A stretch of DNA of 64,000 nt, taken from positions 1,984,001 to 2,048,000 of the forward strand of contig OZ242351.1 in NCBI GenBank assembly GCA_965208675.1, read 5' to 3'. Under the pieces are notes generated by a model that did no database searches, was not told the origin of the DNA, and was given only the letters and a program-made list of their open reading frames with translations. The stretch is from Candidatus Poribacteria bacterium (GTDB lineage Bacteria; Poribacteria; WGA-4E; PCPOR2b). Positions within the stretch are counted from its first letter, which is position 1; every line of letters starts with the position of its first letter. Below, in pieces: positions 56,599 through 62,819 of this stretch. Both the position numbers and the translations under genes were made by a program.

Positions 56599-56928
56599 TT
56601 AGTAACGGACGGCCCTCGCGTTGTTCGGAAACGTGTACTCGCGGGCTTGTGAGCGTCCGGGCCAAGCTTCTATACCTGTATGCGATAACCCGTAGTAGTC
56701 CACCATTGTTGTGGAGACACTCGCCGCGTCTCTTCTCAGATGATTCAAGATGTCCCTTCTTGCCACTGGCCATGCCCGAATCCCTCCACGCTGACTCCGC
56801 TGACGGGCATTACCTACCAATCGTGCACCAACCATTGAGAAACCACGGACGCACAGATGTGGCGCCAGGATTTGGTTGACGAAACTTTCTTCGGTTTGTC
56901 CCTCCACATGAACGAGCAATCTGGTCAT
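56599..56928 (-). pseudogene. DUF4276 (TOPRIM-like) protein, C-terminally truncated
   Basis: VHVEGQTEESFV, GGI..W, TTMVDYYGL, AWPGR; ends at 109 aa without the usual HEFE-containing C-terminal half. Confidence 0.7.
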
Positions 56929-58052
56929 TGCGCTGTACCCCGATTTGCGGACTCAGGTGCCGGACGTCCGCCAAACTCATTTTTCTCCCAGAGTTGACCG
57001 AGGCTATAATTCTCAAGCCGGTTTTTCAGTTTTTCTCCTTCTAGCCTCATGAATTGAGTTGCTCCTTCCACACGATTAGTTACAAGTAGGTCATCTGGTT
57101 CGAAATGGTCGAGCAATAGAGATGACTGTGTCGCGAGGACAATTTGGGTTTCCACGGACGCCTGTTTGATCAGAGAGGCGAGAATTGCGATTGCGGATGG
57201 ATTCAATCCTAGTTCGGGTTCGTCCAAAAGAATCACGGAAGGGCGCAGTCTTCTCGGTTGCAACAGCAAAGTCGCCAAAGCGATGAACCGCAGCGTTGCA
57301 TCGGACAGGGAATGTGCGTCAAAGTAATTGTCGAATTCATCATGCCGCCACTCAAGTCGGATTTTATCTCTCTTGAGCGTCAATAACTCAAGGACAAAAA
57401 ACGGGACAACCAGCCGCACTGTACAGAGTATCAAATCATAATAATTCTCGTGTTTTTCGCGCAGGCGATACAATAAAGACGCGAGATTCGAGCCGTCAGA
57501 CCGCAAGCAGCGATTATCGCTTTGATAGCTTATAGTCCTCAAGGGTGATGTGGAACTTGTGTCGTTAAAATGATACACTCGCCATCGCATAAGGTGGTTT
57601 CGAACGCCCGATATTGCTTGAGATCGCCGTTGCGGAATGCGGATCCCGGCTTCTCCAGCCCGTCCGATAAGCGACTGCTTGTAGGGTTGGCCGGGATATT
57701 TTGCCTTGTCCAAATACAAAACTTCTTCATCGGAAGGATACATACCATCAAAATCATCTGCCTCAAACTTTATTTCATACCGGTATTTTTCGTTCTCGAA
57801 TGATATGTGAATTGTCAGATGTTGTGTTATTCCCGCGCCGAAGTGCAAAATCCTGTCTGCTCCGCCAGACCGTGAGATGTAGTTTTGAAATTGCCCATCG
57901 CTGATGGCATTCAGCAAGGAGAAGACATGGAGGAGGTTGGACTTCCCTGCGCCGTTCGGACCGATTAGTACGTTGATTGGGCGGAGCTCCAATTTTTCCA
58001 TGGAATTGATACTCTTGAAACCCCTTACTGTTATCCAATCAAGTGCAGGCAT
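56925..58052 (-). CDS. AAA_21 ABC-type ATPase paired with DUF4276
   Basis: GFKSI, GPNGAGKSN, LSDATLRF, LDEPELGLNP, ATQS, YSLGQLWEKNEFGGRP; ATGA-coupled to DUF4276. Confidence 0.88.
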   Translation of the reverse strand: MPALDWITVRGFKSINSMEKLELRPINVLIGPNGAGKSNLLHVFSLLNAISDGQFQNYISRSGGADRILHFGAGITQHLTIHISFENEKYRYEIKFEADDFDGMYPSDEEVLYLDKAKYPGQPYKQSLIGRAGEAGIRIPQRRSQAISGVRNHLMRWRVYHFNDTSSTSPLRTISYQSDNRCLRSDGSNLASLLYRLREKHENYYDLILCTVRLVVPFFVLELLTLKRDKIRLEWRHDEFDNYFDAHSLSDATLRFIALATLLLQPRRLRPSVILLDEPELGLNPSAIAILASLIKQASVETQIVLATQSSLLLDHFEPDDLLVTNRVEGATQFMRLEGEKLKNRLENYSLGQLWEKNEFGGRPAPESANRGTAQ

Positions 58053-59728: not shown

Positions 59729-60682
59729 CTAAAACATCACATTTAGTGAAATGCGCTGCGTCGTGTTGTTCTCAAGATTACCAGTGAGAATCTGGAAAGC
59801 GTAGTCCAGTTGGAGGTTGAACTCTGAAATGGGAATTCTCGCGCTCCCGCCGACTACGACAGCGCCCGCGCCATTCACTCCGCTTGATACCGCATAGCCG
59901 CCGCGAACGCCTATGGATTGATTGAACCACACTTCCGCACCGGCGTGAATCTGGCGATTTCCATCTCGAAAACTAACGTCGAGGAGCCCGACGCTGGATT
60001 TTAGTGCTTCACGCAGGGACTCCTGCGCAATGGTCTCTGCAATCGCCTCAAGGCTGTACGCAAATCCGGTGCGCATATTGACAGGAATTTTATCCTCATT
60101 TGCCTCAGAGACACTAATATCCGCCGGAAGCAGGTTTTCCACCGAAAGCCCCCAACTAAATCCTGGCACCGGTTTTGCTAGCAAACCGACATCAAATGAA
60201 AACGCGGAAGCAGCGGTTTTCTCGGCAAAATACGGATTGGCGCGAACGGATTCATTTTCTTCATCGTAGCGCGTCCCCAGGGATTTGAGGTTTACGCCAA
60301 ACGCAAATTTCTGTAAGAACGATTTGCCGTAAGAGAGTTTTATAGTCTGTTCATCATAAATTTCAGATTCTTCGCTGAGAATACCGATGCTTAATCCTAG
60401 TGTGCCAGCGGCTGCGAGCGGCAATATGCCGCCGATGTAGTCGTAACGGATAAGTCCTTGGAACCGCTGTGCATACGTCGCACTTAACTGGTATTTATCA
60501 ATAAAACCGAGACCCGCAGCGTTATAATGTGCGGCATTGCCATCGTCCGCTATGGCGACGAAAGCGCCGCCCAACCCCAGCGGGCGTGCTCCCACGCCGA
60601 TATCGTTGAATGCAGCGAAGACTAAACCGCCAGGTACAAATAAAACCGCAATTGCAGAGATGACGATTTTCAATTTTATCAT
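59729..60682 (-). CDS. PorV/UPF0164-like outer membrane beta-barrel
   Basis: GVGARPLGLGGAFVAIADD..A.HYNAAGL, LDYAF, terminal Phe. Confidence 0.85.
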   Translation of the reverse strand: MIKLKIVISAIAVLFVPGGLVFAAFNDIGVGARPLGLGGAFVAIADDGNAAHYNAAGLGFIDKYQLSATYAQRFQGLIRYDYIGGILPLAAAGTLGLSIGILSEESEIYDEQTIKLSYGKSFLQKFAFGVNLKSLGTRYDEENESVRANPYFAEKTAASAFSFDVGLLAKPVPGFSWGLSVENLLPADISVSEANEDKIPVNMRTGFAYSLEAIAETIAQESLREALKSSVGLLDVSFRDGNRQIHAGAEVWFNQSIGVRGGYAVSSGVNGAGAVVVGGSARIPISEFNLQLDYAFQILTGNLENNTTQRISLNVMF

Positions 60683-60955
60683 ATTTTCTCACCTTTCAAT
60701 GTCTTTTGTGTAAAGCCGAAACCCGATAAAATAGTATCAAATGACCTGATGATAGTTGGAATGCGCGTGGTTACTGACTTCGAGCCATCATCAAATGAGC
60801 GAGTTAGGTTGGCTTAACTAGCCTATCCTTCAAGAAATTCATTGGGTTTGGCTAGAAGCATGACAAAGTATATCAAAAAGGCTATCGCGTGCCAAGCCGA
60901 TGCCAAAGAAAGAGACGTTGTTTTCCCAAGTCTAAGCAATAATAGGCGTATTCTG

Positions 60956-61849
60956 TCATTGCAAGTCTCCTGTAGGTTTGGAACTGGACGGCACGTTGTT
61001 ATCTTTGTCGTCGTCCAAGTTTGCGTTGATGTCATTGAGCGAATGTTGAGGAATAAGGTCGAGATATTGAGAAATGACGCGCTTGGAAAGTTTGGTAATC
61101 TGAGAGATTTTGTCAATATCATCAGTAGCGGTGCGAACAATCTTAACCGACTCATAATCACGGATGTATCGGTCAACAGCTTCTTTGGAGTGCTTGGTCT
61201 CAGCCGCAATGGTTGGCGTCAGATACCCTTGTAGATAAAGGGTGATAATCTCTTTCTTGTGGGTAATTGCTGCTGACAAATCGTGAATGTTGCCGCGGGT
61301 GGGCAAGATTTTTCCACTGGTGCTTTGCCACTCATTGACATACGCACTGACCACCGGGTCTCGGACGTTGAGCAACACAGCCAGGTCTAGTTGAGTCAAC
61401 AATGCCCCTTGGTCATAGGCTTGATAACACCATCGCACCAATCGATGAATTCTGAGTTCACGAGAGCTGAAGCCGCTGTAATAGTGTTCAATGTCCTCGG
61501 GGGCGAGAAAGCTTAAAACCACAGGTTTCATGCGGGTTTTAACGATTGACTTGGCTTTCTGTGGATATTCGTCAATCGGTACAGCCATCCAAACCAGTTG
61601 ACCATAGCTAAGCAGTCGTTCGTTAGGGAGTTGTTCGCCGGAGGCTAGTTTATCAAGTGGCAAGCGAATCAGGAAATAGTCCTCAATGGTTTTGACGATG
61701 TCATCGACAATGGCTTTGGCAGTCACTTCGCCTTTGTCATACCCATAGGAATTGATAAAGCGATGAATCAGCAACTGCCGCAACGATTTATCATTGATAC
61801 GTCTGATTTTCTTCTCGTTGATTTGGGTTCGCGTCAATGATTTACTCAT
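60956..61849 (-). CDS. DUF1670 family protein (second paralog)
   Basis: RLVRWCYQAYDQGALLTQLDLAVLL, LPTRGNIHDL..ITHK..I.LYLQGY..IA..TKHSKEAVDRYIRDY. Confidence 0.85.
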   Translation of the reverse strand: MSKSLTRTQINEKKIRRINDKSLRQLLIHRFINSYGYDKGEVTAKAIVDDIVKTIEDYFLIRLPLDKLASGEQLPNERLLSYGQLVWMAVPIDEYPQKAKSIVKTRMKPVVLSFLAPEDIEHYYSGFSSRELRIHRLVRWCYQAYDQGALLTQLDLAVLLNVRDPVVSAYVNEWQSTSGKILPTRGNIHDLSAAITHKKEIITLYLQGYLTPTIAAETKHSKEAVDRYIRDYESVKIVRTATDDIDKISQITKLSKRVISQYLDLIPQHSLNDINANLDDDKDNNVPSSSKPTGDLQ

Positions 61850-62646
61850 GAGTGCTCCCCCTTTTTTTCATCAACGGGTTCAGGACGAAGTAAAGTCGTC
61901 ATTCGCTCTGTATGTTTGTATTCATCATACAGGGCTAGGTACTCACGAATCAATCGGTCAGAGAGATGGGTGATGAGCCGTATCTGTTCCTTTGGAAAGT
62001 CTTGATGATGGAGCGTTGCTACCTGAGTGAAATTACGCAAGTATCGCAACACGGCGCGTTCGGTATGGTTCGTCTTTCGCTCAATGTCAGTGAATTGATA
62101 GCCTTTAAAGTACAGTTCTAGGATTTGGGTTTTATGAGAAATGCCGGGGCCCATGTCGTGCTTGGCGCCGCGAGTCATTACAAAGAACCCTTGCTGTTTC
62201 AACTGTCGGATATCGCGTTTGACGGTCGCCGGGCTGGAGGTTAATAGCACGGCTAAATCTTCATAGCTGAGCAAAGCGTCTTGTTCATAGGCTTGTTTGG
62301 TTAACCGTAAGATTCGATGTCGTCTGAGTGCTGCAAGTCCATTGTTGGCTAACACCTCAAGGTCGGTGTGCACATCATTGAGGGTGAGTTGGCAGGAGAC
62401 CTTTTTGGCTAAGGCGATGTGTTTACCTGCGGGTTCGTCGGCGGCTACGGCTTCATAGCAGATTTGGCCTGATGTGAGTTTGATATCGGCGTGTTGGGCA
62501 AAGTAGGAAGAAATCTGATTATAGTAGGCTTCGGCAAGAATAGGCATCAGATTGAAGTCTGACGCAATCTTCTGAATAATTGCCGCTCTCGCCGTCTTTG
62601 ATTCCAGACGATTGATACCGTAGTTTGAATGACGTTGTGGTTTCAT
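61846..62646 (-). CDS. DUF1670 family protein (first paralog)
   Basis: GGAGGT RBS before ATG 62646; RILRLTKQAYEQDALLSYEDLAVLL, TRGAKHDMGPGISHK..LYFKGY..TNHTERAVLRY; ATGA-coupled to second paralog. Confidence 0.85.
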   Translation of the reverse strand: MKPQRHSNYGINRLESKTARAAIIQKIASDFNLMPILAEAYYNQISSYFAQHADIKLTSGQICYEAVAADEPAGKHIALAKKVSCQLTLNDVHTDLEVLANNGLAALRRHRILRLTKQAYEQDALLSYEDLAVLLTSSPATVKRDIRQLKQQGFFVMTRGAKHDMGPGISHKTQILELYFKGYQFTDIERKTNHTERAVLRYLRNFTQVATLHHQDFPKEQIRLITHLSDRLIREYLALYDEYKHTERMTTLLRPEPVDEKKGEHS

Positions 62647-62819
62647 AATGACCTCCATGGATTCATGGTGATTGATGGAAATACCATCTGTTATCAGTTT
62701 AGCTCATGGGGTCATTTGATACAAACTATAAACGCGTTGGAAACGTATATGACGCTTTTAAAGTATATATTTTGTTGCACGATTGGGACTGTCCTTTCGT
62801 TTCAGAAATCGAAAAAATG

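Follow-up and report, generated by a model that had tools for sequence, protein, structure and literature searches.

Two DUF1670 genes enclosed by subterminal inverted repeats

We analyzed a 64,000-nt stretch of the genome of a Candidatus Poribacteria bacterium (contig OZ242351.1, positions 1,984,001 to 2,048,000), referred to below as the window; coordinates are those of the window unless a genome is named, and the genome itself (G000) is a single 4.89-Mb contig. Near the right end of the window lies a 2001-bp segment (60729..62729; AAATAG...CAAACTAT) whose only genes encode two paralogous proteins of the DUF1670 family (PF07900). ORF-A (open reading frame A; 270 aa; 61846..62658, minus strand) and ORF-B (297 aa; 60956..61849, minus strand) are coupled, the stop codon of the former overlapping the start codon of the latter (ATGA). 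Both are full-length family members, scoring 212 and 205 bits, respectively, against a cut-off of 25 bits, and they share 34% identity over 186 residues (E 1e-26). Ratios of nonsynonymous to synonymous substitution rates of 0.06-0.15 for both ORFs, obtained by comparison with five relatives, indicate purifying selection. The segment occupies an intergenic region, and the neighboring genes, one for a PorP/SprF-like outer-membrane protein and the other BNR/sortilin-like, are unrelated to it. An earlier reading of the window, made from the sequence only, had described two translationally coupled DUF1670 paralogs as the sole genes of an intergenic segment between unrelated neighbors, and our results bear this out. 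That reading had also found the segment AT-richer than its surroundings, and the difference is slight, the GC content being 0.44-0.50 in the element and 0.48-0.56 around it.

The genes are enclosed by inverted repeats at 60734..60752 (plus strand; GTATCAAATGACC) and 62704..62722 (plus strand), which pair perfectly over 13 bp and at 17/19 positions when extended, as the sequence-only reading had reported. It had taken the outer edges of these repeats (60734..62722, 1989 bp) as the bounds of the element; the repeats do lie there, but the mobile unit is wider, reaching 5 nt past them on the left and 7 nt on the right. The left terminus is AAATAG (60729..60734, plus strand), which in relatives supplies a Lys-stop to the interrupted target gene and whose final G is the first base of the repeat. 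The right terminus consists of the 7 nt AAACTAT (62723..62729, plus strand), and the distance from GATAC to the displaced target codon is always 7 nt. Immediately outside the element lies the target AAA (62730..62732, plus strand), whose first two bases are also the first two bases of the element. The best-conserved 30 nt of the whole element, at 0.98, are those at 62699-62728. By itself, a 13-bp perfect repeat within 3.5 kb is marginal, a 12-bp perfect pair occurring by chance in the same stretch, and the window holds the repeat motif at no more than 2 mismatches twice, against 1.12 expected, which is no enrichment. The exact 13-mer, in contrast, occurs 5 times in the 4.89-Mb genome, where 0.15 would be expected, and each of these 5 marks an end of one of two full copies or of a miniature derivative. 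The weight of the inverted repeat thus comes from the genome-wide count and not from the window alone.

Copies, empty sites, and limits of the element

The second full copy in the genome (G000:C1:4875830-4877830) shows 3 differences in 2004 aligned bases from the window copy (copy 1), and its flanks are wholly unrelated to those of copy 1; the stretch common to both copies reaches 5 nt to the left and 10 nt to the right of the repeats. The miniature (G000:C1:2221177-2221349) is a gene-less 173-bp derivative; its right end is perfect, its left end has a single mismatch in the repeat, and the sequence in between is ~73% similar to the right part of the full element. It lies directly 3' of a WD40/beta-propeller gene with a type IX sorting domain, to which its AAATAG gives a Lys-stop.

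Empty sites were found in relatives and in a metagenome. Namely, two congeners without DUF1670 genes (G001 and G003) have the flanks of copy 1 only 41 and 27 bp apart, and both hold isolated left-end or right-end relics. In G002, where the flanks are 95% identical, the empty site reads CCGATAAAACGCG (also written CCGATAAAACGCGTTGG), and the window at that site reads CCGATA-AAA-[TAGTATC...GATACAAACTAT]-AAA-CGCGTTGG; this gives a net insertion of 2001 bp with a three-base ambiguity. An 8986-nt contig from a sponge metagenome of another study (X5) fuses window position 60728 to 62730, skipping exactly 2001 nt; the ends at this joint are AA..AT, and 3 nt fit either side. Word depth in the same data set is ~400 for the element and 51 for its flanks, and several contigs switch to other flanks precisely at 60729. 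Likewise, removal of the same 2001 bp from copy 2 leaves GTTTTGAAGAAAAAACTCGG, and paralogous hairpins of G002 that are empty have precisely this sequence. The element has moved recently within G000. Several copies with identical ends and unrelated flanks, and an exact empty site, are also the features by which an insertion sequence (IS) is generically recognized. Homing by homologous recombination between repeated targets was considered and rejected, as the right-flank homology amounts to a few bases and the site of copy 1 is unique.

The position of the termini follows from a comparison of copies. The left end AAATAGTATCAAATGACC is invariant in 18/19 relatives' copies, the 19th showing the end with one change, and the right end ...GGTCATTTGATACAAACTAT is present in 18/19, one copy being truncated. 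CTAT-AA is followed by A or G and then by bases that vary, even between identical copies of one genome; the right flank is thus AAA or AAG, whereas the left end is constantly AAA, in line with the 3-nt ambiguity at the X5 joint. This variation on the right, set against the constant AAATAG on the left, indicates that the left AAA belongs to the element, that there is no duplication, and that the limits are 60729-62729, as the second copy, the X5 contig, the G002 empty site, and the ends in relatives agree. No target-site duplication was found at any copy examined in G000, the relatives, the genome collection, or the X5 contig, in keeping with the sequence-only reading. A 5-bp ATAAA duplication at copy 1 was also considered and was rejected, being absent from copy 2 and all relatives.

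The sequence-only reading had proposed a search with both ends for further copies and an empty site, which yielded those described above, and it had named three observations that would speak against its proposal: DUF1670 pairs elsewhere without terminal repeats, a syntenic locus without an empty site in relatives, and a classical transposase elsewhere using the same ends. All three were looked for, and none was observed. The same terminal repeats accompany DUF1670 pairs elsewhere, empty sites exist in G001, G003, G002, and X5, and the exact-repeat search of G000 found no other element with these ends. It is therefore well supported that the segment is mobile and IS-like and that it has no genes besides the DUF1670 pair.

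The position in G002 that is orthologous to window ~60729 carries a different insert of ~0.8 kb (G002:C1:1955625-1956448), which has GC-rich palindromes like repetitive extragenic palindromes (REPs) at its bounds and is accompanied by a ~35-bp duplication of the site. This insert may be a REP-associated transposase unit.

Distribution in Poribacteria and beyond

The family is present in 9/41 relatives, including G002 (4 pairs), G018 (5 pairs, all with the same score), and G006, whose pairs are partly decayed with stop codons; 2/3 congeners lack it. An even sample across the phylum gave 40 positive genomes out of 151, and the number of matches per positive genome ranges from 1 to 18. In any one genome, copies score identically, and some are decayed. 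Nineteen copies from seven genomes align end to end with the window element at 75-96% identity. Two copies of G006 (L052 and L055) measure 3142 and 2560 bp through internal insertions, and their ORF-B has stops, as expected for decaying copies.

A search of the genome collection with a single protein matched Poribacteria only. For metagenomes, we used a profile of 14 homologs, which recovered 80 loci, drawn from many different records, at 58-86% protein identity to the profile. An ORF-B paralog lies directly behind ORF-A in 77 of these 80 loci, the other 3 being truncated or cut by the contig end, and the stop of A overlaps the start of B in most. Where the flanks sufficed, both ends have the repeat, conserved as GTATCAWWTGACC and frequently with the extension CCATGAG, and the spans are 1.68-2.05 kb. 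Many homolog-bearing contigs are ~2.0 kb long, which is how collapsed repeats look in assemblies. Gemmatimonadota is named in a source of DUF1670 homologs, and a Methanosarcina genome used as a control was also positive. A tblastn search of a plasmid collection gave no match. Word-indexed searches returned 895 and 1541 homologs at an E value of 0.001 or less, and an exhaustive search returned 1247 cluster representatives; where homologs from the word-indexed searches carry a name in their source, it is "DUF1670 domain-containing protein," "hypothetical protein," or "biotin operon repressor."

Target sites

The orientation of insertion is always the same, and the site is directly 5' of an AAR triplet or, in sister lineages whose left end is CGATAG, of a CGN triplet. 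Two kinds of target recur. The first, which is the usual one, is the 3' end of a gene: the left end adjoins an ORF ending in ...AT(R/Q)(K/R)M(V/L)(I/T)(L/V)K in 5/5 copies of G018, 2/2 of G022, and 4/4 of G006, and in all 11 the AAATAG of the element completes the protein end ...RKMVILK-stop. The original codons are displaced to the 3' side of the right end, where they read AAATAG, AAGTAA, AAATAA, or AAGTAG. Six interrupted ORFs, among them the one in front of the G000 miniature, were tested against TIGR04183, the type A sorting domain of type IX secretion; all 6 reach its cut-off, with matches running to the C terminus.

The second kind of target, seen in genus g1 and another Poribacteria assembly, is the loop of a hairpin, GAAACCGAGTTTTG(A/C)(A/G)G^AAAAAACTCGGTTTC, also represented by GAAACCGAGTTTTGAAGAAAAAACTCGGTTTC. 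Such loops hold copy 2 of G000 (hairpin and copy at G000:C1:4875810-4877850) and 14 of the 16 full-length copies from the genome collection (four of these 14 being the G002 copies); of the remaining two, one is at a sorting-domain gene end and one is elsewhere. G000 has ~61 of these hairpins (122 matches, with both strands of the palindrome counted), only one of which is occupied. They read AACCGAGTTTT-loop-AAAACTCGGTT, with asymmetric loops of GAAGAA (16), GAAGAAA (9), and CAAGAA (5), and look like a REP-like family that is a preferred target of the element in this genus. The window copy is in neither a gene end nor a hairpin; its site is the intergenic region between two divergent genes, where 46 bp separate it from the PorP/SprF-like gene (59729-60682), upstream of which it lies.

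The metagenome loci follow the gene-end pattern, the left flank encoding a sorting-domain ending of the (K/R/Q)(M/I/L/V) type in 47/53 loci. The terminal codon supplied by the element is AAA in 34 loci, CGA in 10, AGA in 4, TAA in 3, CAA in 1, and AAG in 1, and it is always followed by TAG, the G of which begins the repeat. Both ends are available in 36 metagenome loci, with 2 false right ends (L120 and L152), and in 28/36 the displaced codon is followed by a stop. Terminal and displaced codons share their first two bases in 27 of these 36 pairs and at least 2/3 bases in 33; elements of the CGA type are found at targets ending in CGA, CGC, or CGG and a stop. This co-variation argues that a match of 2-3 nt between the end of the element and its target belongs to the mechanism. 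In three loci (L045, from a relative, and L082 and L092, from metagenomes), a resident left end follows directly after a right end, as in tandem or nested copies. An insertion preserves the landmark together with AAATAG at the left junction, so that re-insertion at the same place is possible.

The two DUF1670 proteins

None of the standard transposition enzymes can be recognized in the two proteins. NCBIfam and Pfam transposase models gave no match at E values up to 0.01 in either ORF, and there was no hidden Markov model (HMM) match to DEDD_Tnp_IS110/Transposase_20, to the HUH Y1 family, or to the resolvase domain PF00239; in PHROGs, only families of "transcriptional regulators" were matched, weakly. 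An RNase H-like DDE fold is not among the structure matches, which do not exclude one. The sequence-only reading had noted that no DDE, HUH, or serine-recombinase motif is visible; searches with HMMs and with folds likewise revealed no such enzyme and no DEDD or tyrosine recombinase.

An AlphaFold2 model of ORF-A, made with 83 sequences, has a mean predicted local distance difference test (pLDDT) value of 90.3 and is built of DNA-binding domains. Its N-terminal domain, which modeled alone reaches a pLDDT of 83.9, consists of three helices and a beta-hairpin with a conserved EPAGKP at the tip; a search of the ESM Atlas with residues 1-108 gave no usable match. The most conserved positions of ORF-A are R163 (invariant), G164, H175, H198, Y206, S233, Y240, D99, R118, Q126, and D134, and ORF-B has counterparts of all of them. 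Several fall in an invariant linker motif, TRG..HD......HK, where the confidence of the model is 73-80; these residues may serve either in DNA contact or in an active site.

The two proteins probably work together, to judge from the ATGA overlap, the overlapping stop and start codons in most loci, and natural fusions made of DUF1670 modules. Such fusions have two modules (~500-570 aa) or three to four (930-952 aa), and the 12 scanned have matches to DUF1670 and helix-turn-helix (HTH) families only. One homolog (P0068) matches the resolvase-type HTH (PF02796) alone, without more of a resolvase. The predicted complex of ORF-A and ORF-B scored 0.29 against a mark of 0.32, which counts neither way.

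Non-coding parts

Behind ORF-B lies a putative sigma-70-like promoter (TTGGCA-17-TATACT with an upstream TG; 60867..60895, minus strand; score 10/12) that reads outward, toward the left end. Its -10 and -35 hexamers are kept in 9-10 of 10 aligned Poribacteria copies, with a variable spacer, and the promoter is missing from short members of the family. No comparable promoter was found upstream of ORF-A. In a circle or a tandem, the outward promoter would read into ORF-A, and the two observations together suggest expression that depends on the junction. In the window copy, the promoter faces the PorP/SprF-like gene, and its orientation is such that insertion may alter the expression of that gene.

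Beside the left repeat lies an imperfect hairpin followed by a second ATCAAATGAGC motif (60749..60801), which corresponds to inner sequence of the right end (GCTCATGGGG...) in the 10-copy alignment and may be functional. The 3' non-coding part (z 0.22) and the left end fold no better than shuffled sequences, and Rfam gave no match at an E value of 0.1 or less, its two rows being snoRNAs at the level of chance (E 0.14 and 0.84). From the stop of ORF-B to the terminus there are 18-234 nt (52 loci), and the leaders before ORF-A measure 19-82 nt. Parts this short seem unable to accommodate either another gene or an RNA that is obligatory, and an obligatory guide RNA is thus unlikely. One RNA sequencing run (X17) covers parts of the element, which is no proof of transcription.

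Proposed mechanism and alternatives

We propose that the element is autonomous and that the DUF1670 pair carries out a self-encoded conservative recombination, chemistry included, a proposal for which the chances appear to us evenly weighed. The multi-HTH proteins would bind the 13-bp repeats as a hetero-oligomer, 5 nt and 7 nt from the termini, and pair the two ends. With the constant seven bases that separate the right repeat from the displaced codon, abutting the ends would leave 12 nt between the arms of the repeat. The expected junction is ...CAAACTAT followed directly by AAATAGTATC..., at the center of which the ends would read ACTAT-AA-ATAGT. In the subfamily of the window, this is a perfect 5-bp inverted repeat around the shared dinucleotide. 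A conservative strand exchange with a target having the same 2-3 nt core would follow, with a geometry resembling that of site-specific recombination on an intermediate that is either circular or synapsed, and the sorting-domain gene end or the hairpin would be the landmark that the proteins recognize. The chemistry would come from an active site beyond the reach of current profiles, for which TRG..HD......HK and the conserved His, Ser, and Tyr residues are candidates. More specifically, DUF1670 may represent an unrecognized class of recombinase or transposase, unrelated in sequence and visible fold to the DDE, DEDD, HUH, serine, and tyrosine enzymes, that acts as a hetero-oligomer and inserts conservatively, in a fixed orientation, and without duplication at sites defined by a 2-3 nt core and a gene-end or hairpin landmark; we advance this more specific claim tentatively, at somewhat less than even chances.

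Several results weigh against the proposal. Pfam, NCBIfam, and PHROGs return DUF1670 and HTH families only, with no catalytic domain, and a profile search of the PDB sequences found nothing relevant. Foldseek gave no match to the ORF-A model at an E value of 0.001 or less. VIA-align reached best Z scores of 5.1-6.8, with DNA-binding domains in every row (residues 105-170 matching a winged helix, 172-223 an HTH, and 200-260 a TrpR/Mor-like unit), and for the N-terminal domain it gave no match with a Z score of 5 or more, the top one, IHF/HU (Z 4.3, root mean square deviation 12.4), being a mere hint. In the model, HTH modules with a beta-arm look like a DNA binder rather than an enzyme. The sharing of the core has exceptions as well (AAA/CAA twice, AGA/CGA twice, AAA/AGA once, and CAA/GAA once), and other subfamilies keep only 3-4 of the 5 symmetric bases at abutted ends. 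No circle junction or other intermediate was found in the data, which are assembled contigs and unable to show a circle junction. The claim of the sequence-only reading that this is an autonomous IS-like element with a DUF1670 transposase is thus upheld as far as mobility and the location of the genes inside the ends are concerned, while the enzymatic role stays a proposal, no catalytic domain having been recognized.

That no catalytic domain or fold was recognized leaves room for a recruited host enzyme: the DUF1670 proteins might only recognize the ends and the target and bend the DNA, while a Xer-type tyrosine recombinase or a topoisomerase of the host breaks and joins it. We consider this the main alternative, though less likely than not. 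It would account for proteins in which every recognizable part is a DNA-binding module and whose N-terminal helices and beta-hairpin, with its proline-bearing tip, weakly recall the arms of IHF/HU; insertion that is oriented, leaves no duplication, and uses a short core is the outcome of a conservative recombinase, and the abutted ends, two inverted arms around a 12-nt spacer, resemble a recombinase core site. Yet the presence of the family in hosts as distant as Gemmatimonadota, Methanosarcina, and those of many metagenomes would demand a near-universal enzyme, and the many targets, both gene ends and hairpin loops, are unlike the single site of the dif type. A rough search of G000 with a dif-like consensus gave no clear site, only a candidate with 3 mismatches and no link to the element. 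Moreover, the strong conservation of the flexible linker motif in both paralogs is not explained by binding alone. A different division of labor, in which the DUF1670 pair is non-autonomous cargo and a classical transposase encoded elsewhere uses the same ends, we regard as improbable. The miniature and truncated derivatives do show ends persisting without genes, but the exact repeat occurs in G000 only at the two copies and the miniature, both genes lie inside the ends in 77/80 metagenome loci and in 19/19 Poribacteria copies and are under purifying selection, and G001 and G003, which lack the genes, hold broken relics only.

An RNA encoded by the element could instead guide target choice and strand exchange, as does the bridge RNA of IS110/IS1111, and could arise from the outward promoter in the 227-nt region behind ORF-B. 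The promoter-like sequence (60895..60867) reads through conserved blocks to the terminus, and the subterminal repeats, the lack of a duplication, and the insertion into repeated hairpins resemble elements of the IS1111 type. Against this, many members have only 18-70 nt behind ORF-B besides their short leaders, the region neither folds better than shuffled sequence nor matches Rfam, and the element has no DEDD recombinase, so that we give an RNA guide very little chance. Finally, the pair could be duplicated transcription regulators that do not move at all, as the name "biotin operon repressor" given to some homologs and the matches to HTH families might suggest; this is scarcely credible, contradicted as it is by the exact 2001-bp presence or absence, the identical ends in many genomes, the multicopy and patchy spread, and the relics.

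Comparison with known systems

The behavior of the element is closest to that of IS1111/IS110 and of serine-recombinase transposons, and its strategy recalls that of Tn7 at attTn7, but the enzyme that defines each of these families is not recognized in it. IS110/IS1111 elements likewise make no duplication, have subterminal repeats, insert in an oriented manner into repeated palindromes, and use a short core common to donor and target; in contrast, they encode a DEDD/RuvC-like transposase, whereas the element has two paralogous HTH proteins and no family-wide guide RNA. Like the element, IS607 and the serine transposons insert without target-site duplication, by a conservative route of the kind proposed here. 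A non-palindromic dinucleotide (AA or CG in the element) common to element and target would set the orientation, and the abutted ends of the window subfamily are symmetric around it. Yet the catalytic domain of IS607 (PF00239) and its fold are not recognized in the element, whose core rule, moreover, has exceptions. IS200/IS605 elements also lack a duplication, have asymmetric ends and an affinity for hairpins, and insert beside a fixed short sequence that resembles the one at the other end; they differ in having an HUH/Y1 transposase and separate subterminal hairpins, whereas the ends of the element are inverted repeats of each other.

Tn7, acting through TnsD, likewise has as its landmark the conserved 3' coding end that members of a gene family share, and its insertion leaves the gene undestroyed. 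Unlike the element, it duplicates 5 bp of its target and carries five genes, DDE and endonuclease subunits among them, while the element rewrites the last codon from inside. Integrative elements that exploit XerCD are, like this one, mobile without a recognizable recombinase of their own; they use one chromosomal dif site, in contrast to dozens of sites per genome and two conserved proteins here. The DDE IS families (IS3, IS4, IS5, IS21, IS30, IS630, and others) duplicate their target, which the element does not.

A full-text literature search for DUF1670, PF07900, or IPR012869 found no paper, and no function was found for the family; among the papers listed on insertion sequences with type IX secretion C termini, none was relevant as judged by title and the start of the abstract, and among those listed on insertion sequences with Poribacteria, none was relevant by title. 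To our knowledge, every well-studied IS family moves by one of a handful of enzyme types. Here, a widespread and clearly active family, present in many metagenomes, has none of those types recognizable, and it would involve either a new recombination chemistry in a protein of HTH modules or a borrowed host enzyme serving dozens of sites per genome; in an IS, either would be a novelty. Insertion at the last codon of genes for secreted proteins, with codon and stop rewritten, would amount to a harmless "safe harbor" strategy, and the unusual precision of insertion and the short, programmable-looking core make the element interesting in practice to genome engineers. In databases, new names would be due for thousands of proteins annotated as "DUF1670 domain-containing proteins" and "biotin operon repressors."

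A few kilobases to the left of the element, the window also contains an ORF of 375 aa (56925-58052, minus strand) with a Walker-type NGAGKSN motif, which is AAA ATPase-like.

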